DNA from: Escherichia coli
GTDB lineage: Bacteria; Pseudomonadota; Gammaproteobacteria; Enterobacterales; Enterobacteriaceae
NCBI RefSeq assembly: GCF_022846255.1
Contig: NZ_AP025682.1
Length of the DNA stretch: 64,000 nucleotides
Direction: 5' to 3' (one strand)
Shown: piece by piece, positions 2,332 to 20,400 of the stretch
Layout of the letters: every line of letters starts with the position of its first letter
How positions within the stretch are numbered: position 1 is the first letter of the stretch
Notes under the pieces: model-generated
Told to the model about the DNA's origin: nothing
Databases searched by the model: none
What the model saw: the letters and a program-made list of their open reading frames with translations, nothing else
Translations under genes and position numbers: made by a program

Positions 2332-2514
2332 ATGAGGGACAAACCCGCGCACCATAAACGCGGTAAAAACCCGGTGTGCATCGTTTTTGATTATTCCCGC
2401 ACACTCACGCAGAAGGAATTCCCTGTCGGGCTACGGTCATGGTTAATGCGGGAATACAGCGACGATACAGCGCATGATGTGTCAGGCTTGAATACCCTTA
2501 TCGAATCCCGGTAA
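2332..2514 (+). CDS. Hypothetical small protein between cos and Rha gene
   Basis: In-frame ATG with AGGA upstream inside ORF 2263..2514; protein-like composition; overlaps an alternative minus-strand ORF 2128..2355. Confidence 0.25.
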   Translation: MRDKPAHHKRGKNPVCIVFDYSRTLTQKEFPVGLRSWLMREYSDDTAHDVSGLNTLIESR

Positions 2515-3030
2515 TAAAAACTGTCCCTGTCTCTCCAGGCGTTTCAGCTTTGCAAGCAATTGAGGTTTTTTCGTTCTCCCCCAGCGATTGAGCAGGCGGC
2601 CAGACATACTGGCGACATCCTTCTCTTTCATATACTCCAGCATTATGGCGTTGCGTTCTGCTTCATAACTTTCGCTGTACTTACGGAGTTCTGCTGACAT
2701 CCAGTTAAAGGCATTTATATAGGCCTCTTTAACGGCGTCGGCTTTTGCGCCATTAAATCCCATAACCAGCATAACGAAGCCGCTAAAGTCCATGCGGTAG
2801 TAAGTCTGCTTCTTGTCGAAAATCCCTAAGCCATTGATTTTTTCGGCAACGCAAAAATGCGCTCTCCGGAAATCTTCTGAGCAATGACAATTTTTCAGCG
2901 CCCTCAATACGTCCGCGTGACGCTTACCAAAAGCCTTTGCGATTTGGAAGGTGTCAGTTACCGGCTCACCCTCTGCTGCGGTAACTAACTGGCGAAAGTC
3001 AAAATCAGAAGTCTCAATTAATTCACTCAT
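2482..3030 (-). CDS. Rha-family phage regulatory protein (putative)
   Basis: 182 aa; N-terminal ...TDTFQIAKAFGKRHADVLRALKN... resembles Rha-family DNA-binding region. Confidence 0.55.
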   Translation of the reverse strand: MSELIETSDFDFRQLVTAAEGEPVTDTFQIAKAFGKRHADVLRALKNCHCSEDFRRAHFCVAEKINGLGIFDKKQTYYRMDFSGFVMLVMGFNGAKADAVKEAYINAFNWMSAELRKYSESYEAERNAIMLEYMKEKDVASMSGRLLNRWGRTKKPQLLAKLKRLERQGQFLLPGFDKGIQA

Positions 3031-3248: not shown

Positions 3249-3698
3249 TTATTTTAAGCACTGCGTCCTGATGTACTCCTGCAGGTAGTTAACCTGCGCG
3301 GTTATCCTGTCGATTCCACTTCGGAGACGGTAATAATTGAGTTCAGCATCTGCTGTAAGTCCTGGGCTTTCTCCATCGCCCATGCCGCTGGCTCCGGTCG
3401 TTGACTTTGCACAGGTGGCGGCGACTTGCAGGCGCTTACGCCCAGCAGAAACATCAGCACGGAGACTTTCAATAGTCGCGTTAGCATCAGCAAGCTCCTT
3501 TGTATATCTGGCATCGAGTTCTGCTACGTCACGTTGACGCTTCTGCATGTCAGCGATGATGGATGTGGCTTTGTCGCGCTGTTCTTTGTAGGTCATGGCG
3601 TTATCACGGTAATGATTAACAGCCCATGACAGGCAGACGATGATGCAGATAACCAGAGCGGAGATAATCGCGGTTACTCTGCTCATTGTTGCCCCCAC
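3249..3698 (-). CDS. Rz: Rz i-spanin
   Basis: 149 aa, N-terminal membrane anchor plus coiled-coil-like sequence, overlaps endolysin stop. Confidence 0.8.
3302..3487 (-). CDS. Rz1: Rz1 o-spanin lipoprotein embedded in Rz in another frame
   Basis: Embedded [23 protein letters not shown]..., lipobox VSAC, Pro-rich. Confidence 0.5.
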
Positions 3699-4180
3699 AA
3701 ACAGACTTCACGCTCAATCTCACGGCGAGCCATCAGCCCTTTCCATTGATTACCGCCAGCGTATGTCCAACGCCGTAGCTGATCACATGCGCCTTTGATA
3801 TCGCCCTGGTTTATTTTGCGAAGAAGCGTCGATGTTCTGAAATTGCCAGCGCCCACGTTGTAAACGAATGAGTAAAGAGCGCCGCGCGTTGTTTCCGGTA
3901 TATCGACTTTGATGTACGGGTTAATTTGTCTGGCGACAGTGGCAAGGTCTTTATTCAAGAGTGCTTTGCATTCTGCTTTGGTATACGTTTTACCGAGCAT
4001 GATGTCTTTTCCTGTATGCCCGTGACATACAGTCCATACACCAACAATATCTTTGTATGGTATGTAGCTGACACCTTCCAGACCATCGTTACCACCTGGG
4101 CCAGTGATTAACACTGATGCTATAGCAATTGCTCCGCCACCAATAGCAGCAGCAACGGCTTTTCGTAATGATGGAGGCAT
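3683..4180 (-). CDS. R: SAR endolysin (phage 21 R-type lysozyme)
   Basis: 165 aa; N-terminal Gly/Ala-rich signal-anchor-release segment [23 protein letters not shown] then lysozyme-like domain. Confidence 0.9.
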
Positions 4181-4395
4181 TATTCACCTCTCGCAGCCTT
4201 TCTTCTGTCTTCTCTGATTTTGAAGTACAGATTTGTCAGATAGGTGAGAAAGCCCAACACAAGGCTTCCAAGTACCCCAATCGCAGCCCACTGTGATGGA
4301 CTAACCTGATCCAACCACTGCAAAAACCAGTATCCCGCACTACCAGCGGATGTTCCGTAGGCAATGCCAGTTGAGATTTTGTCCATTGATTTCAT
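4180..4395 (-). CDS. S: Pinholin (phage 21 S-type)
   Basis: 71 aa, [30 protein letters not shown]... with dual-start motif MKSM and two TMDs, matches S21 as recalled. Confidence 0.9.
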
Positions 4396-4513: not shown

Positions 4514-4589
4514 TGGTGCTGGTTAACGGACTTGAACCGCTACCCATTCGCTTACAAGGCGACTGCTCTACCATTGGAGCTAAACCAGC
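4514..4589 (-). tRNA. tRNA-like gene, anticodon TGT (Thr) by manual folding
   Basis: Cloverleaf: acceptor GCTGGTT/AACCAGC, D-arm GCTC/GAGC, anticodon loop CTTGTAA, T-arm AGCGG-TTCAAGT-CCGTT, encoded CCA; one mismatch atop the anticodon stem. Confidence 0.55.
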
Positions 4590-4594
4590 ATATT

Positions 4595-4669
4595 TGGCGG
4601 GACAGCGTGGACTCGAACCACGATAAGAAGGTTAACAGCCTTCCGTAATGACCTTTATACGACTGACCC
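4595..4669 (-). tRNA. tRNA-like gene, anticodon GTT (Asn) by manual folding
   Basis: Anticodon stem GAAGG/CCTTC, loop CTGTTAA, T-arm CGTGG-TTCGAGT-CCACG, encoded CCA; acceptor and D stems each have one mismatch. Confidence 0.5.
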
Positions 4670-4760: not shown

Positions 4761-5249
4761 CTATGCTACATGTTTAATTTTCTCTACACATTTCCGATTT
4801 TTAAACGCACTATCCAGAACCGGGTGAATCATAAACAACGAGGCATTAAGGATTTCGTCAACTTCCCGTCGACAGGTTGCGAGCGATGGTTTTTGAATGC
4901 GCCCGCCGCCACGGCATAACATCTTGCGAGGTCTTGCGACGCGATGATAGTAAGATGCAATGGCGTGCTTGGAAGAGCCATGAGCGTAGTAGCTGAGGAG
5001 GATTCCAAAGGCTTTCTTGTCAATGTACATGACGGAATCGACGACCTGAGAAATCAACATTCCATCATCATCATTACACATTGGCCTTGTCATAACTCTT
5101 CCCGGCTCTACGCTCTCCATGAACTTCGCTATTACGCTGCTCATGCGCTTTTCCAGACGACCTGAATAAACCCATGCGCCCCACAGTTCAAGCCAGCCAT
5201 TCAGCCACTCATGCTGTTCTTTGGTGAGGTTTAGTTCTCTTATGCCCAC
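4761..5249 (-). CDS. Q: Late-gene antiterminator Q (phage 82/21 type, not lambda type)
   Basis: 162 aa; LELWGAWV... and ...[12 protein letters not shown]... resemble QuuD-like Q proteins; sits between nin genes and lysis cassette. Confidence 0.7.
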
Positions 5250-5911
5250 GCGCCTTCTCCCTGTACCTGAATCAATGTGAGATTTCCGCAGAACACTGCC
5301 CCAGTATCGATATACATCTGGTTGGCAAATTTGAGTGGTTTCACTGCTGGCGTATGACCAAAGATAAACGTGTCCGCGCCTTTAATTTCTTTAACGATCC
5401 CGTCTTGTGAGTTGCTGATTCGTTCGCGGTTCCAGATTACCTGCTGATGATCAACTGGCTTTCCAAATTCGTATTCGTCACAAGGATAATCGGCGTGGCA
5501 GATGACATATTTTTTACCTTTGCTCACCAGTTCGATGATTAACGGAAGTTCTTCTGCTTTATGGGCAAGAGCTTTAGCCAGAATTTCTTTGTCGTAATCG
5601 AGATTAAAGAACCAGCCACCGCCATTAAGCAGCCAGTGATTAACGTTTCCACGCTCTGATAAGCCATCAATCATCATTTGCTCATGGTTTCCACGTACAG
5701 CTCTGAACCAGGGGAATGTGATTAATTCCAGGCATTCAACGTTCTCTGCGCCACGATCAACCAAATCGCCCACCGAGATAAGCAGGTCTTTTTTGTTATC
5801 GAATCCAATCGTATCCAGTTTGTTCATCAGGTTCGTGTAGCATCCGTGCAGATCGCCAACTACCCAAATATTTCGGTATTTGCTGCCATCAATTCTTTCG
5901 TAGATATTCAT
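5240..5911 (-). CDS. ninI: NinI Ser/Thr protein phosphatase
   Basis: 223 aa, GDLHG and GNHE metallophosphatase motifs, matches lambda NinI as recalled. Confidence 0.9.
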
Positions 5912-6519
5912 GCAGCCTCACTTCTGCTGTTTCGCAGTTTTTTAAGTTTCTGTTGATACTCCGCCTTGATGGTCCTGCACTCTTCGACAGTCCAGCGATG
6001 GCGGTTATGGTTTGATTCGATTTCGTCTACTGCTTCCTGCCCGATGCGGTTAATCAGTTCGACGCGATACGGAACGAGATTTCCGCTTTTGTGCTGGTTG
6101 CACACCACGCATTGCTTGTGAATATTACGTTCATCAAATCGGAGTTGAGGCGCCGCAGCAGTTGTCCGGTAATGCCCGGCATCCCACTGAGCAGACGTGA
6201 GCGTTCCGCACGAGATACATGGTAAGTCGCGGTCTCTTTCTCTGATGAAGGCGTTTACGGCTTGTTGGGCTTGTTTAATCCAGTAACTGCGGGGCTTTAA
6301 GGCGAGTTTTCGAATCTTAAGTTTATCTTTCTGTTTCTGCTCCTCTCGTCGTCGTTTCTTCTCTGCTGCCTTTTCCGCTTTTTCGCGTTCTTTGCTTCGT
6401 CGTTCGAGTGCTATCTTGGTTCCACACTCTGGAGAGCACCACCACTGATTGGCGAATGCAGGGTGAAACCATTCCCGACATTCATCGTTTTTACATCGTC
6501 TTCGCGCTGGTTTAGCCAT
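5908..6519 (-). CDS. ninG: NinG (Rap) recombination protein
   Basis: 203 aa, [22 protein letters not shown]..., matches lambda NinG as recalled. Confidence 0.9.
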
Positions 6520-6682
6520 CGTCTTCTTCCTCGTGCATCGAGCTATTCGGATCGCTCATCAGTTCTGCGCAGCAGTGCTCACACACGTGAACTTCCAGCA
6601 CATGCAGCTTCTGACCGCAGTTAGCGCACGTTAAAGCTCGCTCGACACTTCCTTGTTCGTAACTTCGATTTTGGTCAATCAC
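6512..6682 (-). CDS. ninF: NinF
   Basis: Manual minus-strand translation from GTG: [56 protein letters not shown]. Confidence 0.7.
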
Positions 6683-6861
6683 CTTGTTTTCCTCGCACGT
6701 TCTCTAAGCCACCGGATATCCCACAGATGAGCCGTGTAGTTGAAGGTTTTTACGTCAGATTCTTTTGGGATTGGCTTGCGTTTATTTCTGGAGCGCTTCG
6801 TTGGAAGGTATTTGCAGTTTTCGCAGATGATGTCGGTGATACTTCGTCGCTGTCGTCTCAT
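6679..6861 (-). CDS. ninE: NinE
   Basis: Internal Met of ORF 6679..6921: [51 protein letters not shown]... Confidence 0.7.
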
Positions 6862-7298
6862 GCCGCCCTGTCTCCCCATCGCGCTTTCCATTCGAGAGCC
6901 AGTCGCGCTTCGTCTGACCACTTAACGCCACGCTCTGTACCGAATGCCTGTATAAGCTCTAATAGCTCCGCAAATTCGCTTACACGCATCCTGCTGGTTG
7001 ACTGGCCTATTACCACAAAGCCATTCCCGGCAAGGTTAGGAACAACGTCCTGCTGCTTTAATGCTGCTGTAAAAACGCACTTCCAGCTTTCTGCATCCAG
7101 CCAGCGACCATGCCATTCAACCTGACGAGAGACGTCACCAAGGCAAGCCCAAAGCTTTCGATTCTGGTCTAAGCTGCGGTTGCGTTCCTGAATGGTTACT
7201 ACGATTGGTTTGGTTGGGTCTGGAAGGATTTGCTGGATAGCTTGAATGGCGTTCTGCTGATGTACTGGAGATCGAATTTCAAAGGTTAGTTTTTTCAT
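6858..7298 (-). CDS. ninB: NinB (Orf) recombination protein
   Basis: [31 protein letters not shown]... matches lambda NinB as recalled. Confidence 0.9.
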
Positions 7299-7371
7299 GA
7301 CTTCCCTCTCCCCCAAATAAAAAGGCCTGCGATTACCAGCAGGCCTGTTATTAGCTCAGTGATGTAGATGG

Positions 7372-7662
7372 TCATCTTTTAACTCCATATACCGCCAATA
7401 CCCGTTTCATCGCGGCACTCTGGCGACACTCCTTAAAAATTAGGTTCGTGCTCATCTTTCCTTCCCGTTCTTCCTTGGTAGCAAACCGGTAATACACCGT
7501 TCGCCAGACCTTACCTTCGATAACCAGAAGACCTGCCCGTGCCATTTTAGCCGCGGCCTGATTTATGCTGGTTACTGTTGCGCCTGTTAGCGCGGCAACG
7601 TCCGGCGCACAGAAGCTATTATGCGTCCCCAGGTAATGAATAATTGCCTCTTTGCCCGTCAT
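7372..7662 (-). CDS. ren: Ren
   Basis: 96 aa, MTGKEAIIHYLGTHNSFCAPDVAALTGATVTSINQAAAKMARAGLL... Confidence 0.85.
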   Translation of the reverse strand: MTGKEAIIHYLGTHNSFCAPDVAALTGATVTSINQAAAKMARAGLLVIEGKVWRTVYYRFATKEEREGKMSTNLIFKECRQSAAMKRVLAVYGVKR

Positions 7663-8360
7663 ACACTTGCTCCTTTCAGTCCGAACTTAGCTTTGAGTTC
7701 TGCGATCTTCGCCAGAGCCTGTGCACGATTTAGAGGTCTACCGCCCATGACAGGAAGTTGTTTTACTGGTTCAGGGATCGCCTCACCACGGTTAATTCTC
7801 GCAGTCATATGGACAAGCTCATCTGCGGCCTTACGGCGTAATTCCGCATCAGTAAGCGCATTGGCCCGCATGTTCTGATACAGGTTGGTAACCAGCCAGT
7901 AGTGCGCGTTTGATTTCCACGGATAAGACTCCGCATCCGGATACAGGCCTCGCTTCCGGCAATACTCGTAAACCATATCAACCAGCTCGCTGACGTTTGG
8001 CAGTCCGGCGATAACGGATGCTTCTTCCCGGCACCATGCAACAAACTGCCCGGGTGATGGCAGAAATGGTCGATTCTGCCGACGGGCTACGCGCATTCCT
8101 GCGTTAACCTGTTCCATTGTGGTGATCCCGTTTTCCCGGAAAGCCAGAACCCACTGGCGGCGGATTTCGTTCAGTTCGTTCTGGTCACGGTTAGCCAGGC
8201 TCGCCGGGAAAGTTGCCAGTAACTGGCTGAACACACCGTTGATGATCTGCGCTACCTGCTGTACCTGAGGCTTTTCGTCGTACTGTTCCGGCATGTTGTT
8301 GGCGATCCGACGCATCTGCTCACGGTCAAAGTTAACCATCTGTGCGGCGATGTTTTTCAT
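7659..8360 (-). CDS. P: Replication protein P (DnaB loader)
   Basis: 233 aa, matches lambda P as recalled. Confidence 0.95.
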   Translation of the reverse strand: MKNIAAQMVNFDREQMRRIANNMPEQYDEKPQVQQVAQIINGVFSQLLATFPASLANRDQNELNEIRRQWVLAFRENGITTMEQVNAGMRVARRQNRPFLPSPGQFVAWCREEASVIAGLPNVSELVDMVYEYCRKRGLYPDAESYPWKSNAHYWLVTNLYQNMRANALTDAELRRKAADELVHMTARINRGEAIPEPVKQLPVMGGRPLNRAQALAKIAELKAKFGLKGASV

Positions 8361-9256
8361 AGATCCACCCCGTAAATCCAGTCAGTGTTCGTCAGGTCGA
8401 GTTTTGGTTTGCCGGCTGTCACGCCAGCCTGTTGCTTGTTTCGGTTGATTTCGAGCTGGGTCCACTTGTCGCGGAGTTTGGCCGGACTCAGCACGTTACC
8501 GGACCAGAAGTTGTCCTGGCATGCCCAGCGGAACAGTACACACATGTCGCGATGGTTGCGTCCGTCACGTTCACGCATCAGGCGGATATCGTTAGCCCAC
8601 CCAGCAAAATTCGGTTTTCTGGCTGATGGTGCGATAGTCTTCACCATGTCAAACATCCACTCTGCGGCGGTCAGGTCTTCTGCTGTCCCCCACTTGCTGC
8701 CGCTCTGAATTGCAGCATCCGGTTTAACCACAGAAAGATCGTTTTCTGGCTGGTCAGAGGATTCGCCAGAATTCTCGGACGAATAATCTTTTCTTTTTTC
8801 TTTTGTAATAGTGTCTTTTGTGTCCCCCTGTTTTGAGGGATAGCAATCCCCCAATTTGAGGGATGTTTTATCCCTCGTTTTAGGGGATTTTCCCTCGTTT
8901 TGAGGGATACACCATTCTGAGATGTTTTTATTTGGTCCAAACATGCCGCCTTGCTGCTTGATAATATTCATTCTGACGAGTTCTAACTTGGCTTCATTGC
9001 ACCGTTTGACAGGTAACTTTGTAATCTCGCTAAGTTGAGAATCGGTGATTCTGTCCATTGGTTTATTCCACCCATAGGTTTTACGCAGAATGGCAAGCAG
9101 CACTTTAAACTGTCGCTTGGTCAGATCTGCGCCTGAATAAGCCTCAAGCAGCATATTTGATAGTCTGGCGTAACCATCATCGAGATCTGCCACATTACGC
9201 TCCTGTCCGGTAAAGTTACCTCTGCCGAAGTTGAGTATTTTTGCTGTATTTGTCAT
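8357..9256 (-). CDS. O: Replication initiator O
   Basis: MTNTAKILNFGRGNFTGQERNVADLDDGYARL... matches lambda O; contains ori iterons. Confidence 0.95.
   Translation of the reverse strand: MTNTAKILNFGRGNFTGQERNVADLDDGYARLSNMLLEAYSGADLTKRQFKVLLAILRKTYGWNKPMDRITDSQLSEITKLPVKRCNEAKLELVRMNIIKQQGGMFGPNKNISEWCIPQNEGKSPKTRDKTSLKLGDCYPSKQGDTKDTITKEKRKDYSSENSGESSDQPENDLSVVKPDAAIQSGSKWGTAEDLTAAEWMFDMVKTIAPSARKPNFAGWANDIRLMRERDGRNHRDMCVLFRWACQDNFWSGNVLSPAKLRDKWTQLEINRNKQQAGVTAGKPKLDLTNTDWIYGVDL
8822..8908. repeat. ori-lambda iterons inside O
   Basis: Four tandem ~18-bp repeats of the form TCCCTCNTTTTGAGGGA followed by AT-rich DNA. Confidence 0.8.
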
Positions 9257-9290
9257 AATGACTCCTGTGGATTGATCCAGTCTTTCTACA

Positions 9291-9569
9291 TCAGGCCTCA
9301 AAACTGTTGCAGCAGTCTTGAGGCTTTTCTTTTGTCAGCACCATGGCTACTTTCTTTGCTAGCTTTGCTAATTCCTCGTCTTCAACACCCCACTCCAGCA
9401 CAGCCAGAAGCATGGCCATCTTTGGGATAAAGCTGTCTTTCCATCGCGAAATTTGCGATTCATTAATCCCTAATGCATCAGCAACCTTTCGCTGACCACG
9501 TACAGCAATTCGATTCAGGATGTTGCTTGTGATTGCATTCGCTTTCTTGCGAGTACTTGTAAGTTGCAT
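9291..9569 (-). CDS. c1: P22 C1-like (cII analogue) transcriptional activator
   Basis: Internal Met of ORF 9291..9656: MQLTSTRKKANAITSNILNRIAVRGQRKVADALGINESQISRW..., HTH. Confidence 0.75.
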   Translation of the reverse strand: MQLTSTRKKANAITSNILNRIAVRGQRKVADALGINESQISRWKDSFIPKMAMLLAVLEWGVEDEELAKLAKKVAMVLTKEKPQDCCNSFEA

Positions 9570-9631
9570 ATGTAAGTATTTCCTTAACAAATAAGAAGTT
9601 ATACGCACCAACTGATGCGCGTTGTATTCCC

Positions 9632-9672
9632 GCATTTCGGCGGGAATAAGGACCATGACTGTTAAAGAGCAA
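9632..9672 (-). promoter_or_regulatory. nutR (boxA + boxB)
   Basis: Minus strand GCTCTTTAACA (boxA) then hairpin CCCGCCGAAATGCGGG (boxB), downstream of cro. Confidence 0.6.
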
Positions 9673-9677
9673 TTTGC

Positions 9678-9863
9678 TTATGCCGCTTTGCGATAAGCAC
9701 TTTCTTGATACTTCAGGGCGCCAGCTGTAACGACTTCCAGTCGATAGGCGTCTTTCTCTGGGATGACTTCCTTCCACTGAGAGACTGCTGCATCGCTAAT
9801 GCCTAACGCTTTAGCTACCGCACGCTGGGTTCCGAAGTGGTCGATAACATCTTTCTTGTACAT
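9678..9863 (-). CDS. cro: Cro (P22 type)
   Basis: 61 aa, MYKKDVIDHFGTQRAVAKALGISDAAVSQWKEVIPEKDAYRLE... Confidence 0.9.
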   Translation of the reverse strand: MYKKDVIDHFGTQRAVAKALGISDAAVSQWKEVIPEKDAYRLEVVTAGALKYQESAYRKAA

Positions 9864-9943
9864 AGACTCGCTCCGAAATTAAAGAATACTTAAATTATCT
9901 ATCAAAGGAATCTTAAGTCAAGTTTATTTAAGATGTCTTAACT
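9864..9943. promoter_or_regulatory. OR operator region with divergent promoters
   Basis: 18-bp sites fitting the P22-type pattern ANTNAAGNNNNCTTNANT at 9878-9895 and 9926-9943, half-fit at 9901-9918. Confidence 0.65.
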
Positions 9944-10594
9944 ATGAATACACAACTGATGGGTGAGCGTATTCGCGCTCGCAGAAAAGAACTTAAGATT
10001 AGGCAGGCTGCCCTTGGCAAGATGGTTGGCGTGTCTAATGTTGCTATTTCCCAATGGGAGCGTTCTGAAACTGAGCCCAATGGCGAAAACCTATTGGCTT
10101 TAGCCAAGGCTTTACAGTGCTCCCCTGATTACTTGTTGAAAGGAGAAGATAGTCTTTCAAACATTGCCTATCACAGCAGGCATGATCCAAGAGGTTCGTA
10201 TCCTCTAATTAGTTGGGTAAGCGCAGGATGTTGGATGGAAGCTGTAGAGCCATATCATAAGCGTGCAATAGATAACTGGTACGATACAACCGTAGATTGT
10301 TCAGAAGATTCGTTTTGGCTGGACGTAAAGGGTGATTCGATGACGGCTCCAGCCGGTCTTAGCATCCCGGAAGGGATGATAATACTAGTCGATCCTGAAG
10401 TAGAACCTCGTAATGGGAAGCTGGTAGTGGCAAAGCTCGAAGGAGAAAACGAGGCAACTTTCAAGAAGTTAGTTATTGATGCTGGCAGAAGGTTTCTAAA
10501 ACCACTTAACCCACAATATCCGATGATTGAGATCAACGGGAACTGCAAAATCATCGGTGTAGTTGTCGATGCAAAAATAGCAAACCTTCCATAA
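9944..10594 (+). CDS. c2: Prophage repressor, P22 C2 type
   Basis: 216 aa, MNTQLMGERIRARRKELKIRQAALGKMVGVSNVAISQWERSE...; N-terminal HTH and C-terminal LexA/S24-like domain. Confidence 0.95.
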   Translation: MNTQLMGERIRARRKELKIRQAALGKMVGVSNVAISQWERSETEPNGENLLALAKALQCSPDYLLKGEDSLSNIAYHSRHDPRGSYPLISWVSAGCWMEAVEPYHKRAIDNWYDTTVDCSEDSFWLDVKGDSMTAPAGLSIPEGMIILVDPEVEPRNGKLVVAKLEGENEATFKKLVIDAGRRFLKPLNPQYPMIEINGNCKIIGVVVDAKIANLP

Positions 10595-10649
10595 GGGGCA
10601 TTCGCCCCTTTTTTTCTTTCCTTTAAAAATCAAAGCAAAACTTAAACTT

Positions 10650-10715
10650 CGCAATAAAATTTAAGTTTTCTTCAAAAACGCCCTTGACCAACAATTAAAG
10701 AAATCTTAAATTTAA
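10650..10715 (+). promoter_or_regulatory. pL promoter with OL operators
   Basis: TTGACC (10684-10689), 17-bp spacer, TAAATT; operator ATTAAAGAAATCTTAAAT (10694-10711) overlaps it. Confidence 0.6.
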
Positions 10716-10756
10716 GTCATCAGCAGGACGCTGGTAGCCAAACGGAACAGATTGGC

Positions 10757-10797
10757 AGGCTCTTTAACATTGATGGGATTGTCCCGCCGAAATGCGG
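10757..10797 (+). promoter_or_regulatory. nutL (boxA + boxB)
   Basis: GCTCTTTAACA then hairpin CCCGCCGAAATGCGGG, identical to the nutR elements. Confidence 0.6.
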
Positions 10798-10906
10798 GAA
10801 CCAAAGAGTAGTTGGCTTTGGGGTGACGTGAAGTGCAGCTGCACGACGGCAACCGGAAGATAAGCACCCGGCGCGTCACCGCCAAAGTCAATCATCGGAG
10901 GTCAAC

Positions 10907-11179
10907 ATGGCAGTAGTCATTACATATCTGGCTGACGATAACGCCAGAAATCGCCGCAGAGCACGCAGACAGGCTCAACGTGAGCAGGCAATGCAAGAAC
11001 AGCGACTGGCGCGAAAAATTGCGCTAAAGCTCTCTGGTTGCGTCAGAGCAGACAAAGCAGCATCACTCGGAAGCCTTCGCTGCAAGAAGGCAGATGAATG
11101 CAGTGGAAGTATTTGCCTGCCAAACGTAGCCATTTACGCGGCAGGCTACCGGAAATCAAAACAACTGACGGCGAGATGA
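10907..11179 (+). CDS. N: N-family antiterminator with arginine-rich motif
   Basis: 90 aa, ...DDNARNRRRARRQAQREQ... just downstream of nutL; segments resemble phage 21 N and P22 gp24 as recalled. Confidence 0.65.
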   Translation: MAVVITYLADDNARNRRRARRQAQREQAMQEQRLARKIALKLSGCVRADKAASLGSLRCKKADECSGSICLPNVAIYAAGYRKSKQLTAR

Positions 11180-11195
11180 TAAATTCATTTGCTAA

Positions 11196-11777
11196 TTACT
11201 TGTTTTTGCCATGCTTATCCTGAGCGATAAGTTCATCCATAAGGCTGTCTGCCTTCCCGGCAAACCTAATGTAGCACTCATGCCTATAGCTTTCAGGGAT
11301 AACGAAACGGTCGGTATCAGGATATCCAACAGCAGGAGGCCTTCGAACGAGGAGTCCTTTTTTGAGCAATGAAATTGATTCATGAGCTCCCTTTTCCGTT
11401 TGTAGCTGGTTATTAGCGGCTACAGCGAATGCCAAATACGCTCTTTCTCCAAGAGTTAATGAATCAAACAAATCTTGCACATATTTTTCTTCTTTAGATT
11501 TGCGCTTCTGAGCAGCGGATACCTCAATTCTTTCAGTCACAGCGTGATAAGCGGAATTAACAACGCCGTTAAGCACATAGCTAACGCAAAACAACAGGAT
11601 GTAATACATCCAGTAATGAGGAAGGATTTCTGGATTATGCAGGTTTATCCATTCTTTTACGCTTACCGGCATAACAATAATCAATATGATCAGGATGATT
11701 AGCATATGAATCAACTGTTTAAGTGTCATTCCTTGCAGGAAAAAATGCATTAGTTCCTGCCACCATGAGTTGTTCAT
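11196..11777 (-). CDS. sieB: Superinfection exclusion protein SieB
   Basis: 193 aa, hydrophobic N-terminal half, matches lambda SieB as recalled. Confidence 0.9.
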   Translation of the reverse strand: MNNSWWQELMHFFLQGMTLKQLIHMLIILIILIIVMPVSVKEWINLHNPEILPHYWMYYILLFCVSYVLNGVVNSAYHAVTERIEVSAAQKRKSKEEKYVQDLFDSLTLGERAYLAFAVAANNQLQTEKGAHESISLLKKGLLVRRPPAVGYPDTDRFVIPESYRHECYIRFAGKADSLMDELIAQDKHGKNK

Positions 11778-11990
11778 CGGCGTTTCTCTTTTGCTCTCTG
11801 TAGGGGTGAATAGAGTTTATCCGATTTCTCGCTGTAGGGGTACATGAGAACCACCGAGCCTGATGTGGTTAAAAGACAGGCACAATCTTTACTACCGCAA
11901 TCCACTATTTAAGGTGATATATGGAAGAAGAATTTGAAGAGTTCGAAGAGCATCCTCAGGATGTGATGGAACAATACCAGGACTATCCGT

Positions 11991-12170
11991 ATGACTACGA
12001 CTATTGATACAAATCAATGGTGTGGACAATTCAAACGATGCAATGGATGCAAGCTGCAATCGGAATGCATGGTTAAGCCTGAAGAAATGTTTCCTGTAAT
12101 GGAAGATGGGAAATATGTCGATAAATGGGCAATACGAACGACGGCAATGATTGCCAGAGAACTTGGTTAA
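11991..12170 (+). CDS. ral: Ral (restriction alleviation)
   Basis: Manual translation MTTTIDTNQWCGQFKRCNGCKLQSECMVKPEEMFPVMEDGKYVDKWAIRTTAMIARELG. Confidence 0.7.
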   Translation: MTTTIDTNQWCGQFKRCNGCKLQSECMVKPEEMFPVMEDGKYVDKWAIRTTAMIARELG

Positions 12171-12373
12171 CAGAACAACAAAGCTGCCTGATAGTGGCCT
12201 TTATTTTTGGCATAAATAACAGAATAAACACTGCACCGTGTATTCATTCCAACGAGTGAATACACGGAGCAATGTCGCTCGTAACTAAACAGGAGCCGAT
12301 TTGTTCTGATTATTGGAAATCTTCTTTGCCCTCCAGTGTGAGGGCGATTTTTTATCTATGAGGATATGAATAG

Positions 12374-12742
12374 GTGTCAAACATCAAAAAATACATCATT
12401 GATTACGACTGGAAAGCATCAATTGAAATTGAAATCGACCATGACGTAATGACAGAGGAAAAACTTCACCAGATTAATAATTTCTGGTCAGACTCTGAAT
12501 ACCGACTCAATAAACACGGCTCTGTATTAAATGCTGTATTAATCATGCTGGCGCAACATGCTCTGCTTATAGCAATTTCAAGCGACTTAAATGCATATGG
12601 TGTTGTGTGTGAGTTCGACTGGAATGATGGAAATGGTCAGGAAGGATGGCCTCCAATGGATGGTAGCGAAGGAATAAGAATTACCGATATCGATACATCA
12701 GGAATATTTGATTCAGATGATATGACTATCAAGGCCGCCTGA
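12374..12742 (+). CDS. ea10: Ea10 (ssDNA-binding protein)
   Basis: 122 aa, MSNIKKYIIDYDWKASIEIEIDHDVMTEEKLHQ... Confidence 0.85.
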   Translation: MSNIKKYIIDYDWKASIEIEIDHDVMTEEKLHQINNFWSDSEYRLNKHGSVLNAVLIMLAQHALLIAISSDLNAYGVVCEFDWNDGNGQEGWPPMDGSEGIRITDIDTSGIFDSDDMTIKAA

Positions 12743-12814
12743 GTGCGGCTTTACCGCATACCAATAACGCTTCACTCGAGGCGTTTTTCGTTATGTATAA
12801 ATAAGGAGCACACC

Positions 12815-12979
12815 ATGCAATATGCCATTGCAGGGTGGCCTGTTGCTGGCTGCCCTTCCGAATCTTTACTTGAACGAATCACCCGTAAATTACGTGACGG
12901 ATGGAAACGCCTTATCGACATACTTAATCAGCCAGGAGTCCCCAAAAATGGATCAAACACTTATGGCTATCCAGACTAA
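12815..12979 (+). CDS. cIII: CIII (FtsH inhibitor)
   Basis: Internal Met of ORF 12743..12979: MQYAIAGWPVAGCPSESLLERITRKLRDGWKRLIDILNQPGVP... Confidence 0.85.
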   Translation: MQYAIAGWPVAGCPSESLLERITRKLRDGWKRLIDILNQPGVPKNGSNTYGYPD

Positions 12980-13091
12980 ATTCACTATCGCCACTTTTAT
13001 TGGCGATGAAAAGATGTTTCGTGAGGCCGTCGACGCTTATAAAAAATGGATATTAATACTGAAACTGAGATCAAGCAAAAGCATTCACTAA
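12948..13091 (+). CDS. kil: Kil
   Basis: [47 protein letters not shown] at the end of ORF 12822..13091. Confidence 0.8.
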
Positions 13092-13462
13092 CCCCCTTTC
13101 CTGTTTTCCTAATCAGCCCGGCATTTCGCGGGCGATATTTTCACAGCTATTTCAGGAGTTCAGCCATGAACGCTTATTACATTCAGGATCGTCTTGAGGC
13201 TCAGAGCTGGACGCGTCACTACCAGCAGATCGCCCGTGAAGAGAAAGAGGCAGAACTGGCAGACGACATGGAAAAAGGCCTGCCCCAGCACCTGTTTGAA
13301 TCGCTATGCATCGATCATTTGCAACGCCACGGGGCCAGCAAAAAAGCCATTACCCGTGCGTTCGATGACGATGTTGAGTTTCAGGAGCGCATGGCAGAAC
13401 ACATCCGGTACATGGTTGAAACTATTGCCCGCCACCAGGTTGATATTGATTCAGAGGTATAA
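13046..13462 (+). CDS. gam: Gam (RecBCD inhibitor)
   Basis: 138 aa, [35 protein letters not shown]... Confidence 0.95.
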
Positions 13463-13467
13463 AACGG

Positions 13468-14253
13468 ATGAGTACAGCACTCGCAACGCTGGCAGGGAAG
13501 CTGGCTGAACGTGTCGGCATGGATTCTGTCGACCCACAGGAACTGATCACCACTCTTCGCCAGACAGCATTTAAAGGCGATGCCAGCGATGCGCAGTTCA
13601 TCGCATTGCTGATCGTCGCCAACCAGTACGGCCTTAATCCGTGGACGAAAGAAATTTACGCCTTCCCTGATAAGCAGAACGGCATCGTTCCGGTGGTGGG
13701 CGTTGATGGCTGGTCCCGTATCATCAATGAAAACCAGCAGTTTGATGGCATGGACTTTGAGCAGGACAATGAATCCTGCACATGCCGGATTTACCGCAAG
13801 GACCGTAATCATCCGATCTGCGTTACCGAGTGGATGGATGAATGCCGCCGCGAACCATTCAAAACCCGCGAAGGCAGAGAAATCACGGGGCCGTGGCAGT
13901 CGCATCCCAAACGGATGTTACGTCATAAAGCCATGATTCAGTGTGCCCGTCTGGCCTTCGGATTTGCTGGTATCTATGACAAGGATGAAGCCGAGCGCAT
14001 TGTCGAAAATACCGCATACACTGTAGAACGTCAGCCGGAACGCGACATCACTCCGGTTAACGATGAAACCATGCAGGAGATTAACACTCTGCTGATCGCC
14101 CTGGATAAAACATGGGATGACGACTTATTGCCGCTCTGTTCCCAGATATTTCGCCGCGACATTCGCGCATCGTCAGAACTGACACAGGCCGAAGCAGTGA
14201 AAGCTCTTGGATTCCTGAAACAGAAAGCCACTGAGCAGAAGGTGGCAGCATGA
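13468..14253 (+). CDS. bet: Bet (Red-beta recombinase)
   Basis: 261 aa, [32 protein letters not shown]... Confidence 0.95.
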
Positions 14254-14930
14254 CACCGGACATTATCCTGCAGCGTACCGGGATCGACGTGAGAGCTGTC
14301 GAACAGGGGGATGATGCGTGGCACAAATTACGGCTCGGCGTCATCACCGCTTCAGAAGTTCACAATGTGATAGCAAAACCCCGCACCGGAAAAAAGTGGC
14401 CTGACATGAAAATGTCCTACTTTCACACCCTGCTGGCTGAGATTTGCACCGGTGTGGCTCCGGAAGTTAACGCTAAGGCGCTGGCCTGGGGAAAACAGTA
14501 CGAGAACGACGCCAGAGCCCTGTTTGAGTTTACTTCCGGCGTGAATGTTACTGAATCCCCGATCATCTATCGCGACGAAAGTATGCGCACCGCCTGCTCT
14601 CCCGATGGTTTATGCAGTGACGGCAATGGCCTTGAGCTGAAATGCCCGTTTACCTCCCGGGATTTCATGAAGTTCCGGCTCGGTGGTTTCGAGGCCATAA
14701 AATCGGCTTACATGGCCCAGGTGCAGTACAGCATGTGGGTGACGCGAAAAGATGCCTGGTACTTTGCCAACTATGACCCGCGTATGAAGCGTGAAGGCCT
14801 GCATTATGTCGTGATTGAGCAGAATGAAAAGTACATGGCGAATTTTGACGAGATGGTGCCGGAGTTCATCGAAAAAATGGACGTGGCACTGGCTGAAATT
14901 GGTTTTGTATTTGGGGAGCAATGGCGATGA
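14250..14930 (+). CDS. exo: Exo (Red-alpha exonuclease)
   Basis: 226 aa, [43 protein letters not shown]... Confidence 0.95.
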
Positions 14931-15109
14931 AGCATCCTCACGATAATATCCGGGTAGGCGCGATCACTTTCGTCTACTCCGTTACAAAGCGAGGCTGGGT
15001 ATTTCCCGGCCTTTCTGTTATCCGAAATCCCCTGAAAGCACAGCGGCTGGCTGAGGAGATAAATAATAAACGGGGAGCTGTATGCACAAAGCATCTCCCG
15101 TTGAGTTAA
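14921..15109 (+). CDS. Lambda orf60a-like small protein
   Basis: [37 protein letters not shown]... Confidence 0.6.
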
Positions 15110-15273
15110 GAACGAGTATCGAGATGGCACATAGCCTCGCTCAAATTGGAGTCAGGTTTGTGCCAATACCAGTAGAAACAGACGAAGAATTTCATACGTT
15201 AGCCGCATCCCTTTCACAAAAGCTGGAAATGATGGTGGCGAAAGCAGAAGCAGATGAGAGAGACCAGGTATGA
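15082..15273 (+). CDS. Lambda orf63-like small protein
   Basis: [38 protein letters not shown]... Confidence 0.6.
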   Translation: MHKASPVELRTSIEMAHSLAQIGVRFVPIPVETDEEFHTLAASLSQKLEMMVAKAEADERDQV

Positions 15274-15349
15274 CAACCACTGAATGCATTTTTCTGGCAG
15301 CGGGCTTCATATTCTGTGTGCTTATGCTTGCCGACATGGGGCTTGTTCA

Positions 15350-15565
15350 GTGACACCTCAGCAAGAAAACGCCCTTCGCAGCATTGCCCGTCAGGCTAAT
15401 TCTGAAATCAAAAAAGCCAGACAGCAGTTTCCGGATAAAAACGTCGATGACATTTGCCGTAGCGTACTGAAGAAGCACCGCGAAACGGTAACGCTGATGG
15501 GATTCACACCGACTCATTTAAGCCTTGCGATCGGCATGTTGAACGGCGTCTTTAAGGAACGGTGA
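15350..15565 (+). CDS. Lambda orf61-like small protein
   Basis: GTG start inside ORF 15284..15565: VTPQQENALRSIARQANSEIKKARQQFPDKNVDDICRSVLKKH... Confidence 0.5.
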   Translation: MTPQQENALRSIARQANSEIKKARQQFPDKNVDDICRSVLKKHRETVTLMGFTPTHLSLAIGMLNGVFKER

Positions 15566-15663
15566 ACATGAAAAGCAAAATCATCAGGGAGCTACAGGCT
15601 CCTTTTTTATTATTCGCATTTACCCTCAAGCGTATTAACCAACAATTCAGGGATTAATGAAAG

Positions 15664-15885
15664 ATGGCGGACATCATTGATTCAGTATCAGAAATTGAAG
15701 AATTACAGCGCAATACAGCAATAAAAATGCGTCGTCTGAACCACCAGACTATATCTGCCACTCATTGTTGTGAGTGTGGCGATCCGATAGATGAACTAAG
15801 ACGTCTGGCCGTTCAGGGTTGTCGGACTTGTGCAAGTTGCCAGGAAGATCTGGAGCTTATCAGTAAACAGAGAGGTTCGAAGTGA
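15664..15885 (+). CDS. TraR/DksA-family C4 zinc-finger protein
   Basis: 73 aa with CCECGDPIDELRR...CRTCASC four-Cys motif. Confidence 0.6.
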   Translation: MADIIDSVSEIEELQRNTAIKMRRLNHQTISATHCCECGDPIDELRRLAVQGCRTCASCQEDLELISKQRGSK

Positions 15886-16091
15886 GCGAAATTAACTCTC
15901 AGGCACTGCGTGAAGCGGCGGAACGTGCAATTCCAGCAATGGAACGCCTGTTAATGTTGCCAGCTGATGATGATTTGTTAAGTGAACAGGAACTTAAAGA
16001 TTACGGTGTGGATATTGATGCGCTCAACGCCTTCAAATTTCTGGCCGGACCAGAAACCGTGCTGGCACTGCGCCGTCAGGAAGTTTTTTAG
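15882..16091 (+). CDS. Hypothetical acidic protein, last gene of the pL operon
   Basis: 69 aa, GTG start overlapping the TraR-like stop, so likely translationally coupled. Confidence 0.5.
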   Translation: MSEINSQALREAAERAIPAMERLLMLPADDDLLSEQELKDYGVDIDALNAFKFLAGPETVLALRRQEVF

Positions 16092-18545: not shown

Positions 18546-18586
18546 CTGAACTCGCTACGGCGGGTTTTGTTTTATGGAGACAAGAA

Positions 18587-18931
18587 ATGTCAGATTTGGC
18601 TATGAAGGTTTTGAAATGGCAATCGACTGGCGATGTTGGCATCAGTAGCGCAACTCTTGCCTCAATCGCATGTGGACTGAAAAAGAATATCTATGGTCAT
18701 AGCTTCGGTGCTCCACATGACGCAGCCGATTTCCGACGATGCGTTGCGCTTGTCGAGCAGATTCCAGAAATCAGGGATTCATTCGACAAGGTTGCAAAGC
18801 GCGTTCCGGCATTCAAAGGCATCCTCAACGAATGGGATTCTCTCGTTGCTCTGTTGAAGTCTGAAATGAAGATACACGGAAACAAAGCACCAGAGACTTA
18901 CAGAAGAATTAGCGAGTTACGCAAGGACTAA
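18587..18931 (+). CDS. Hypothetical protein, 114 aa, no recognisable family
   Basis: ORF track; ATG with GGAGA SD; MSDLAMKVLKWQSTGDVGISSATLASIACGLKK... Confidence 0.55.
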   Translation: MSDLAMKVLKWQSTGDVGISSATLASIACGLKKNIYGHSFGAPHDAADFRRCVALVEQIPEIRDSFDKVAKRVPAFKGILNEWDSLVALLKSEMKIHGNKAPETYRRISELRKD

Positions 18932-18989
18932 CCACAGCCTCACACTCGATGAGGCCCGTTCATTTCTCAAGATATCCAGACCTACCATT

Positions 18990-19012
18990 GCCGCATCAAT
19001 GCGGCTTTTCTT
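18990..19012 (+). terminator. Putative terminator before xis
   Basis: GCCGCA-TCAA-TGCGGC followed by TTTTCTT. Confidence 0.45.
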
Positions 19013-19036
19013 GCGTGTAATTGCGGAGACTTTGCG

Positions 19037-19255
19037 ATGTACTTGACACTTCAGGAGTGGAACGCACGCCAGCGACGCCCAAGAAGCCTTGAAACAGTTC
19101 GTCGATGGGTGCGCGAATGCAGGATATTCCCTCCTCCGGTTAAGGATGGAAGAGAGTATCTGTTCCACGAATCAGCGGTAAAGGTTGACTTAAATCGACC
19201 AGTAACAGGTAGCCTTTTGAAGAGGATCAGAAATGGGAAGAAGGCGAAGTCATGA
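19037..19255 (+). CDS. xis: Excisionase Xis
   Basis: 72 aa, MYLTLQEWNARQRRPRSLETVRRWVRECRIFPPPVKDGREYLFHESAVKVDL... near-identical to lambda Xis as recalled. Confidence 0.9.
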   Translation: MYLTLQEWNARQRRPRSLETVRRWVRECRIFPPPVKDGREYLFHESAVKVDLNRPVTGSLLKRIRNGKKAKS

Positions 19256-20306: not shown

Positions 20307-20400
20307 TTTTATTTTGACTAATAATGACCTGCCTACATTAATTCATTGATAATAAAAGAGATTTTAAATATACAACTTATTCACCTAAAGTGCACCGACC
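20307..20400. other. Approximate prophage-chromosome junction (attL)
   Basis: AT-rich 94 bp between int stop and torS start; core not located at nucleotide resolution. Confidence 0.35.

Follow-up and report, generated by a model that had tools for sequence, protein, structure and literature searches.

A mosaic immunity and early-regulation region of a probable phage 21/lambda-like prophage in Escherichia coli

Gene order and boundaries of the block

The window, i.e., the whole 64-kb stretch of E. coli DNA that was analysed, contains a block of early phage genes in the order c1, nutR, cro, OR, c2, OL/PL, nutL and a gene for a 90-aa N protein, followed by sieB. The features of the block, together with a promoter next to its left end, are as follows.

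9231-9259, plus strand: pO-like promoter, TTGAGT-17-CATAAT with TG (promoter scan)
9291-9569, minus strand: c1 (analogue of lambda cII), 92 aa, P22/HK620 type; Pfam Phage_CII (PF05269), E = 2.5e-44
9523-9536, plus strand: TTGC-N6-TTGC site TTGCTTGTGATTGC, the expected c1/CII binding site of PRE, directed toward cro and c2, inside the 5′ end of c1 (pattern search)
9629-9670, minus strand: nutR; boxA GCTCTTTAACA at 9660-9670, 15-nt spacer, boxB CCCGCCGAAATGCGGG at 9629-9644
9678-9863, minus strand: cro, 61 aa, P22/21 type; Pfam P22_Cro, E = 9e-28
9878-9943: right operator region with OR3 (9878-9895), OR2 (9900-9918) and OR1 (9926-9943), mapped from the annotated phage 21 operators
9921-9894, leftward: promoter PR; -35 TTGACT at 9921-9916, -10 GATAAT at 9899-9894 (promoter scan, 10/12)
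9944-10594, plus strand: c2 prophage repressor, 216 aa; Pfam HTH_3 and Peptidase_S24 (DNA-binding and self-cleavage domains)
10593-10620, plus strand: intrinsic terminator after c2, tIMM-like; 7-bp stem with 5 GC pairs, then a T-run (terminator scan)
10659-10712, plus strand: left operator/promoter region with OL2 (10659-10676) and OL1 (10694-10711), from pattern search, phage 21 mapping and alignment
10684-10712: promoter PL; -35 TTGACC at 10684-10689, -10 TAAATT at 10707-10712 (promoter scan)
10759-10798, plus strand: nutL; boxA GCTCTTTAACA at 10759-10769, 13-nt spacer, boxB CCCGCCGAAATGCGGG at 10783-10798
10811-10892, plus strand: long hairpin of the N leader, downstream of nutL and ahead of the ribosome-binding site of N
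10907-11179, plus strand: N antiterminator, 90 aa, HK620 type; Pfam N_peptide (PF25694), residues 11-90, 57.5 bits against a cut-off of 27.9, E = 2.1e-15
11196-11777, minus strand: sieB superinfection exclusion gene, P22 type; Pfam SieB (PF14163), E = 2.5e-22

The left flank consists of O and P genes of lambda/phage 21 type (99% aa identity), and the O protein is 99.3% identical to that of both phages. The first-pass annotation had described this flank as lambda-type and the alignments agree, with 97-98% DNA identity up to position 9281. The lambda genome aligns with positions 6858-9281 at 97.7% and with positions 11798-15931 at 97.5% nt identity; phage 21 aligns with the flanks at 5908-9281 and 11897-15803 at 96.9-97.9%, and its Q gene at 98%. 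The left junction with the lambda/phage 21 homology is at 9281/9282, within a conserved oop/pO segment in which homology to the oop region of HK629 covers 9249-9281. The right junction is at 11797/11798, just past the start of sieB, and lambda homology resumes at 11798.

On the right side, ral, exo, bet and gam are of lambda type (97% nt identity), as had been proposed. However sieB, which had been grouped with them, displays 82% aa identity to SieB of P22 and 19% to that of lambda, and the DNA identity to P22 sieB varies between 72 and 98% in 50-bp windows. Thus sieB belongs to the substituted block, whose right-hand end it forms, and not to the lambda-type flank. It adjoins N on the opposite strand, and the two genes are convergent as in P22. 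Its product would be expected to abort superinfecting phages.

The mosaicism extends below the gene level. At a mapping resolution of 50 bp, at least seven junctions are found in 2.5 kb, and two of these are within N. At the left end, the pO-like promoter would precede an oop-type antisense RNA that overlaps the 3′ end of c1, at ~9266-9340 if the extent of lambda oop is taken as a guide. An Rfam search of positions 8800-12400 at a permissive threshold gave only chance sub-threshold matches (snoR126 and the RpsF leader), and neither the nut sites nor oop were recovered as families.

Beyond the block, a phage 21-type Q gene with tRNAs is present, and the late region extends past the left edge of the window. 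The holin, endolysin and Nu1 open reading frames are probably phage 21-like, and their best DNA matches are other lambdoid coliphages. At the other end, an HK022-type int is followed by long, chromosomal-looking open reading frames and a tRNA-Ser. The ral gene is interrupted by a nonsense codon, which is a sign of some decay of the prophage.

Repressor, operators and c1

The activities considered below are those expected from homology and from the lambda/P22 circuit. The c2 protein is closest to the full-length open reading frame of phage 21 and to HK629 (213/216 identical, 98.6%), followed by N7 and CUS-3 (96.8%) and P22 (93.1%). Its N-terminal domain is identical to the solved P22 c2 domain (PDB 1ADR, 2R1J, 3JXB) at 65 of 68 positions. 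The three differences, K16E, S54A and D68E, are all outside of the helix SNVAISQWERSE, and the recognition helix is identical. The Cro protein is 100% identical to Cro of N7 and CUS-3, with 59/61 identities to phage 21 and 58/61 (95%) to P22 Cro (PDB 1RZS).

Sites that resemble TTAAG-N4-CTTAA cluster in the operator regions, at 9880-9893 and 9928-9941 in OR and at 10661-10674 and 10696-10709 in OL, with five matches found against 1.5 expected. Compared to the phage 21 operators, OR1 is identical (18/18), and OR2 (17/19), OR3 (17/18) and OL2 (17/18) are nearly so. Compared to those of P22, OR1 and OR3 each show 17/18 identities and OL2 is identical, which confirms the P22-type 18-bp operator pattern that was noticed at first reading. 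OL1 is a variant site, ATTAAAGAAATCTTAAAT. A weak OL3, placed by alignment only, is probably located near 10631-10648; with this weak site included, three 18-bp operators with TTAAG-type half-sites are found at both OR and OL. The OR alignment is near-invariant among the window, N7, CUS-3, HK629, phage 21 and P22. The terminator after c2 also has annotated counterparts, one in the corresponding position of phage 21 and another, tIMM, between cI and OL in HK620.

By analogy with lambda and P22, c2 dimers would bind the three operators at OR and OL and turn off PR and PL, which would confer immunity. Self-cleavage of the S24 domain, stimulated by RecA, may then lead to prophage induction, and Cro may act on the same operators to commit the phage to lytic growth. 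On the basis of sequence, homoimmunity with both phage 21 and P22 is predicted for the prophage. These two phages are reportedly of one immunity specificity (Botstein & Herskowitz 1974; Campbell 1994), but a literature search for a statement that P22 and phage 21 immunity are the same found nothing specific. As a rule of thumb, homoimmunity is expected at 92% identity or more (PMC2629481).

The c1 protein shows 88% aa identity to P22 c1 and 82/92 identities to HK620 cII. Identity to phage 21 cII is only ~23%, thus the cII of that phage is of another type. By analogy with cII, c1 is a putative activator for lysogeny establishment and may act on the TTGC-N6-TTGC site at PRE to establish repression. 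The position of TTGCTTGTGATTGC agrees with the annotated PRE/cII sites of HK620, phage 21 and mEp213. It should be noted that the TTGC-N6-TTGC pattern is not above chance in the window as a whole (6 occurrences with 5.3 expected), and therefore only the canonical positions were used as evidence.

A longer c1 open reading frame of 121 aa that begins at 9656 was rejected as a read-through of nutR. The gene actually begins with the ATG at 9569, in agreement with P22, HK620 and RefSeq, whose annotation of strain TL20 gives the same c1 coordinates. The same 121-aa artefact is present in the annotations of N7 and CUS-3.

The N protein and its boxB

Both nut sites have the same boxA and boxB, as was originally observed. 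The combination of GCTCTTTAACA, a gap of 10-22 nt and CCCGCCGAAATGCGGG is found exactly twice in the 64-kb window, and not once in 100 shuffled sequences. The boxB is predicted to fold into a hairpin of 6-9 bp with a 6-nt loop; the nutR hairpin has a predicted energy of -13.7 kcal/mol (z = -2.6). Both sites lie where nut sites are annotated in phage 21 and HK620. In the 2001 GenBank record of HK620 the annotated nutL is identical to that of the window, and the annotated nutR differs at one base of the spacer. The nutL string is invariant in 76 of 77 relatives from IMG/VR.

The hairpin downstream of nutL was modeled with RNAalifold on leaders of HK620, 21 and P22 types. The predicted structure contains 29 base pairs, 6 of which show compensatory changes. 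Its role may be akin to that of the RNase III site of the lambda N leader.

The N protein is almost identical over its whole length to JEP4 N (89/90) and HK620 N (87/90), with 97-98% identity to N of mEp213, HK140 and HK630. Three parts can be distinguished. The arginine-rich end (aa ~8-32) includes the motif NARNRRRARRQAQR (aa 12-25), which has seven arginines and can be aligned with the corresponding ends of N from phage 21 and P22. The middle part (aa 33-62) is common to phage 21. The C-terminus (aa 63-90) is common to HK629/VT1-Sakai and resembles P22 gp24 in its last ~20 residues. Residues 1-32, on which nut specificity depends, are not a match to either phage 21 or P22. The proposal that N is a chimera of phage 21 N and P22 gp24 is thus not upheld, as the whole protein is 97-99% identical to N of HK620, JEP4 and mEp213, and the arginine-rich end is of neither parental type.

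Two marks define the HK620 type, an arginine-rich end of the form M[TA]VVITYLADDNARNRRRARRQAQREQAMQEQ and, in nutL as well as nutR, boxB CCCGCCGAAATGCGGG; both are found in the window. The same boxB and arginine-rich end are found in N7, CUS-3, HK620, JEP4, HF4s and phi296. At least 80 IMG/VR contigs contain the N/nut pair, and the repressor encoded between their nut sites is of several different kinds; 74 of 80 IMG/VR loci with an HK620-type N carry both copies of boxB. In phage 21 and HK629, the phage 21 arginine-rich end is paired with the phage 21 boxB. The matching of N and nut first suggested for this locus is supported by the agreement of its two nut sites and by the co-occurrence of arginine-rich end and boxB, in these 74 loci as in the named phages. 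The exception is mEp213, which has an HK620-type N without the cognate nut, beside a lambda-type nutL. Two natural C-termini of N are seen, …RIYYRKPRSEMGVTC… and …LPNVAIYAAGYRKSKQLTAR.

In analogy with lambda, the arginine-rich N-terminus of N would bind boxB, whose hairpin is the same in the transcripts from PL and from PR, and N together with Nus factors on the rrn-like boxA may then allow RNA polymerase to read through the early terminators. N proteins are described in general terms as mosaic, with new boxB specificities to be expected (PMC2629481, PMC8022706). It seems reasonably probable that the HK620-type arginine-rich end and its boxB, with a 5-bp CCCGC/GCGGG stem and a CGAAAU loop that may in fact form a GAAA tetraloop over a C·U mismatch, constitute a distinct peptide-RNA recognition pair alongside those of lambda, P22, phage 21 and H-19B. 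Such a pair would be invariant across hundreds of prophages and would combine freely with the two alternative N C-termini and with several repressors; the window would be an ordinary carrier of the pair and not its discovery.

The alternative is that HK620-type N has no separate specificity, and that its arginine-rich end reads a GNRA-like fold and is interchangeable with the lambda N/boxB pair. The A-x-x-RRR-x-RR spacing of arginines does align with residues 3-11 of lambda N, the loop contains GAAA, and mEp213 has its HK620-type N beside a lambda-type nutL. However, the boxB differs from that of lambda in stem sequence and in loop length (predicted 6 nt, as against 5 nt), the position of lambda Trp18 is Ala in HK620-type N, and arginine-rich end and boxB stay together in the 74 IMG/VR loci and the six named phages given above, with a swap seen only in mEp213. 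Interchangeability is thus rather unlikely. A PDB sequence search with N returned no N peptide and only spurious matches to RNF168 (E > 0.3), so the arginine-rich end is not informed by any structure. A literature search on the boxB or nutL of CUS-3 or HK620 found nothing specific, and no biochemical study of the HK620-type N–boxB pair was found.

HK620-type N antiterminator is a suitable annotation of the gene; in most genomes RefSeq names it "hypothetical protein". If its specificity were measured, the N–boxB pair would be a naturally orthogonal candidate for peptide-RNA tethering tools.

Relationship to sequenced phages and distribution of the block

HK620 shares with the window its N, nutL, nutR and c1/cII as well as the order nutR-cro-OR-cI-OL-nutL-N. 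Its record is said to be that of Clark and co-workers from 2001. The record (GenBank AF335538) differs from the window in a 434/L-like cI (41% identity to c2), another cro, 17-bp operators, an extra gene, hkaS, after cI, non-lambda O/P genes and a P22-like virion.

Phage 21 (OL657228), whose immunity region is also present in lambda imm21 and DE3, has the same type of repressor and Cro, an identical OR1 with the other operators at most a few bases off, the same boxA, the same N middle, and O, P, ren, nin, Q, tRNA and exo-bet-gam flanks at 97-98%. It differs in its cII, in having its own N arginine-rich end and boxB, in a lambda-like N C-terminus and in the absence of sieB.

The best DNA matches over c2-cro-nut-N (91-93%) are the E. 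coli P22-like phages JEP4, N7, CUS-3 and IME10, which have podovirus backbones and other replication genes. JEP4 shares the nut sites and N, and its c2 is identical at 209 of 216 positions; N7 shares the c1 type. Unlike in the window, the C-terminus of N is lambda/21-like in N7 and CUS-3, the cII is of lambda type in CUS-3 and JEP4, and the CUS-3 N leader has a 0.2-kb insertion.

P22 itself, a Salmonella phage, shares protein families and the operator pattern with the window, but it has replication genes 18/12 instead of O/P, a different host, and a gp24 arginine-rich end and boxB (GCGCTGACAAAGCGC) that are not those of the window. The description of c2, cro and c1 as P22 immunity proteins is right at the level of the aa family (93, 95 and 88% identity, respectively) but not as to the nearest relatives, which are E. 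coli phages: DNA identity over the immunity region is 92% with CUS-3, 90.8% with N7, 87% with HK629, 86% with phage 21 and only 82% with P22.

These comparisons bear on the idea that a lambda backbone acquired its immunity module straight from P22, with a novel hybrid of 21 N and gp24 and co-adapted nut sites. The aa identities to P22, the P22-like sieB, the phage 21-like middle of N and its gp24-like last residues would fit such a transfer. It is nevertheless very improbable, given the lower DNA identity to P22 than to the E. coli phages (87-92%), the 94-100% identity of the N-terminal half of c2 to phage 21/HK629 in 50-bp windows, an N arginine-rich end and boxB of HK620/CUS-3 type, and the near identity of the complete N to known N proteins. 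The two outcomes that the first-pass annotation had named as counting against its reading, an immunity region closer to another lambdoid phage and an N uniformly similar to a single known N, are both what the alignments display.

An origin from a laboratory hybrid (examples are lambda imm21, DE3 and lambda immP22) was also considered, since lambda-type flanks around a 21/P22-group repressor resemble the classic hybrids, and DE3 and lambda imm21 are among the matches. This origin was rejected and has practically no likelihood. DE3 and lambda imm21 show only 87% identity at 75% coverage, and the window differs from phage 21 in its cII, its nut sites and the arginine-rich end of its N, and also in that it has sieB. 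The phage 21-type Q, the HK022-type int and the adjoining chromosomal-looking genes also argue for a natural prophage, as does the 99.8% identity of the block in clinical, animal and wastewater isolates.

The region is thus very probably the immunity and early-regulation module of a natural phage 21/lambda-like prophage in the E. coli chromosome, a fine-scale mosaic of segments that are all present in sequenced lambdoid phages. On sequence grounds, the c2-OR-cro core falls into the P22/phage 21 repressor group, the HK620 type accounts for c1, N and both nut sites, and sieB is of P22 type. Since all of the modules are found in sequenced phages, this is textbook mosaicism and not a new system; the region is already known in kind. 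The repressor/cro cassette has been exchanged independently of the flanking nut-N-c1 segments. The value of the locus is mainly in its correct annotation and as a clean, well-resolved example of mosaicism below the gene level.

Three points weigh against this interpretation, the position of the late region outside of the window, the nonsense codon in ral and the weakness of OL3. The first two would also suit an inactive relic of a cryptic prophage, whose parts are recognisable but whose switch no longer works, as would the several pseudogenes in the distal early-left region of the related prophage of strain TL20. Such a relic is improbable, as none of the genes c1, cro, c2, N and sieB is truncated, and no damage is seen in the operators, in PR and PL, in either nut site or in the N-leader hairpin. 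Conservation across strains and contigs likewise argues for a natural, maintained module. With a criterion of at least 80% of the block covered and both junctions included, the whole block is present in 74 of 5,426 complete E. coli genomes, which makes an assembly chimera unlikely. It is 99.6-99.8% identical in unrelated strains, and the module also occurs in several UViG contigs of 37-42 kb. The RefSeq annotation of the TL20 prophage lists the same genes.

Gene order and boundaries of the immunity block

The window is inverted with respect to the usual lambda map. Genes in and around the immunity block are listed below.

Early-region genes with their Pfam families
7659-8360, -, P (Phage_lambda_P)
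8357-9256, -, O (Phage_rep_O)
9291-9569, -, c1 (Phage_CII)
9678-9863, -, cro (P22_Cro)
9944-10594, +, c2 (HTH_3 and Peptidase_S24)
10907-11179, +, N, 90 aa (N_peptide)
11196-11777, -, sieB, 193-aa ORF (SieB)
after sieB, +, in order, ral (Ral), ea10 (DUF2528), cIII, kil, gam, bet and exo

A matching gene set is annotated by RefSeq in relatives, where N is mostly labelled "hypothetical protein". The ral gene (11991-12170, +) ends in a nonsense codon at 12168-12170, leaving 59 aa; codon 60 is TAA in the window but AAA (Lys60) in E. coli strain TL20, which has a related prophage, and in lambda, both of which have a Ral of 66 aa.

In BLASTN searches against reference loci, lambda and phage 21 homology (97-98%) continues up to position 9281 and resumes at 11798 (lambda) or 11897 (phage 21). 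The best matches within 9282-11797 are E. coli phages: N7 (90.8%), CUS-3 (92-98%), HK629 (87%) and phage 21 (86%). DNA identity to P22 amounts to 82% across c1-c2 and to 86% across the stretch with the N C-terminus, sieB and ral. Thus the P22-type label given to the region in the first-pass annotation is right for the family, but other lambdoid phages are closer relatives than P22. A scan of identity in 50-bp steps resolves the mosaic into the following segments.

Segments of the block and their best matches
c1: N7 / P22 / HK620 type
nutR boxB: N7 / CUS-3 type
boxA-R, cro and OR: found throughout the P22/21 group
c2 N-terminal half: phage 21 / HK629 (94-100%)
c2 C-terminal half and OL: N7 / CUS-3
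nutL boxB, leader and N arginine-rich end: N7 / CUS-3 (98-100%)
N middle: all E. coli types
N C-terminus: HK629 (100%)
sieB: P22 (72-98%)

At the protein level, Cro is identical to that of N7 and CUS-3 (100%) and 95% identical to that of P22, and c1 shows 89% identity to HK620 and 88% to P22. Phage 21, in contrast, has a different cII type, only ~23% identical to the window c1. SieB, previously described as lambda-type, shows 82% identity to the P22 protein and 19% to the lambda one, and sieB is therefore part of the substituted block and lies outside the lambda-type flank. Laboratory hybrids were also considered as a source, and are ruled out, since identity to lambda imm21 and DE3 is 87% and the modules differ.

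Public records contain some inconsistent annotations. The cII/c1 genes of N7 (L001, 4092-4457) and CUS-3 (L004, 2710-3090) carry a 29-aa 5′ extension reading through nutR. For the phage 21 repressor (L002, 4771-5421), the annotated start is an internal Met, which gives 190 aa; the open frame extends to 216 aa and translates to the same protein as the HK629 repressor.

Repressor, operators and early control sites

The c2 protein is 98.6% identical to HK629 c2 and to the full-length phage 21 ORF, 96.8% to N7/CUS-3 and 93.1% to P22. Within its first 68 residues there are three differences from the P22 c2 DNA-binding domain of the crystal structure (K16E, S54A and D68E), all outside the recognition helix. 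Sites of the form TTAAG-N4-CTTAA are grouped at OR and OL in a pattern search; the coordinates below are carried over from the curated phage 21 operator annotation.

Operators
9878-9895, OR3
9900-9918, OR2
9926-9943, OR1
10659-10676, OL2
10694-10711, OL1

In alignment the OR region is nearly invariant among the window, N7, CUS-3, HK629, phage 21 and P22. Because of this, and of the closeness of the c2 DNA-binding domain to that of P22, the prophage is predicted to share one immunity group with P22 and phage 21. P22 and phage 21 are reportedly homoimmune, as Botstein & Herskowitz (1974) and Campbell (1994) are said to have described.

PR, PL and a terminator after c2 are predicted at the expected positions. 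A pattern search places a PRE c1 site, TTGCTTGTGATTGC, at 9523-9536, and a promoter scan places pO, for an oop-type antisense RNA, at 9231-9259. Further TTGC-N6-TTGC sites are found at 4924-4937 (+), the canonical paQ position inside Q, and at 19011-19024 (+), the pI position upstream of int (19233-20306). These would fit a complete CII/c1 regulon, though the number of such sites in the window is not above chance.

By analogy with the canonical lambda/P22 circuit, c2 would repress PR and PL via OR1-3 and OL1-3 until inactivated by RecA-stimulated self-cleavage, and Cro would compete for the same operators. c1 would activate PRE, opposed by the antisense RNA from pO. N would bind boxB in both early transcripts and, with Nus factors on the rrn-like boxA, suppress early terminators, and SieB would abort superinfecting phage.

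A long hairpin with 29 predicted pairs (10811-10892, +) lies between nutL and the N ribosome-binding site. It is kept across HK620-, 21- and P22-type leaders, with compensatory changes in six pairs, and is probably the counterpart of the N-leader processing/translational-control structure of lambda. The CUS-3 leader has an insertion of ~0.2 kb just downstream of this hairpin, before N.

The N protein and its nut sites

The 64 kb contain exactly two copies of the composite of boxA GCTCTTTAACA, boxB CCCGCCGAAATGCGGG and a gap of 10-22 nt between them, at 10759-10798 (+) downstream of PL and at 9629-9670 (-) downstream of cro; 100 shuffles gave none. The reading of two nut sites with the same boxA and boxB is thus borne out. 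Both boxB sequences are predicted to fold into a stable hairpin with a 6-nt loop.

N had been described as looking like a chimera of phage 21 N and P22 gp24. Compared with these two only, residues 33-62 correspond to phage 21 N and the last ~20 are gp24-like, while the arginine-rich part that binds RNA (residues 1-32) matches neither of them. A protein search of a phage collection finds the whole N in single known proteins: 89/90 residues are identical in JEP4 and 87/90 in HK620, with 97-98% identity in mEp213, HK140, HK630 and ECP1. From residue 37 to residue 90 the protein is 100% identical to N of the Stx1 phage VT1-Sakai. The complete 90-aa N is an established allele, and the chimeric look arises only against phage 21 and P22. 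The features first described are confirmed as real, with the sieB type the one descriptive error. The interpretation holds in part: the family labels and N/nut matching stand, but it was wrong on the closest relatives, on where N comes from and on the sieB type.

Two alternative C-termini are found joined to the arginine-rich end of the HK620-type N. In phages L and P22, the N C-terminus is known to have been exchanged in nature with function kept (PMC8022706), and mosaic N proteins whose boxB specificities are predicted to be new have been discussed for epsilon34 (PMC2629481).

The matching of N and nut is upheld by co-occurrence: N7, CUS-3, HK620, JEP4, HF4s and phi296 have the window-type arginine-rich end and the window boxB at both nut sites, whereas phage 21 and HK629 pair the phage 21 arginine-rich end with the phage 21 boxB, and P22 and lambda have their own boxB hairpins at nutL. 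In the HK620 record of 2001 (GenBank AF335538) both sites are annotated; its nutL is that of the window and its nutR differs by one spacer base. Both boxB copies are present in 74 of the 80 IMG/VR loci with an N at least 96% identical, and boxB is invariant in 77/77 nutL and 74/74 nutR copies. The repressors between the nut sites of these loci are P22/21-type c2 (~35), HK620/434-like (41% identical, ~30) and others. Because varied repressors lie between nut sites with an invariant boxB, exchange of the repressor/cro cassette is independent of the nut-N-c1 frame. The searchable literature yielded no biochemical study of the HK620-type N–boxB pair, and the remaining interest of the region lies in this pair only.

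Two IMG/VR loci, L014 and L086, have the window-type N and nutL and lack an HK620-type nutR across the repressor; in L014, c2 is identical and cro and c1 were not detected. A deletion or a mismatch of nut sites could account for this. Phage mEp213 (L090) has two N genes, at 2016-2348 and 3501-3773. The upstream one is preceded by a lambda-type nutL, GCCCTGAAGAAGGGC (see also locus L045, position 718), and the downstream one, of HK620 type, has 97.8% identity to the window N. Since no HK620-type boxB occurs anywhere in the mEp213 locus, the downstream N is an orphan without a cognate nut.

Prophage context and prevalence

Several clinical E. coli chromosomes carry a 99.8% identical copy of the block together with its two lambda-type junctions (9150-11950), which is present at ≥80% coverage in 74 of 5,426 complete E. 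coli genomes. Nothing in it is new in kind: all modules and nut sites were sequenced and annotated earlier, and the complete arrangement is found again in public genomes.

The backbone is closer to phage 21 than to lambda. Q (4761-5249) is phage 21-type (98% nt), as are tRNA-Asn and tRNA-Thr (4514-4669, 98% identical). ORFs 4180-4395, 3683-4180, 3249-3698 and 1443-1988 are presumably the S21 holin, SAR endolysin, nested Rz/Rz1 and Nu1; the best DNA matches of the lysis/terminase region are other lambdoid coliphages (~95%), in a comparison that did not include phage 21 itself. The integrase and excisionase (18560-20620) are HK022-type (95% nt), unlike those of phage 21 or lambda. The boundary between prophage and chromosome is expected at about 20.4-20.6 kb, and the long ORFs and tRNA-Ser past it we take to be chromosomal. 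Strain TL20 combines this prophage's early region with a Q, lysis and packaging module unlike that of the window. An extra anti-repressor/KilA-N-like ORF (2482-3030) lies between lysis and terminase.
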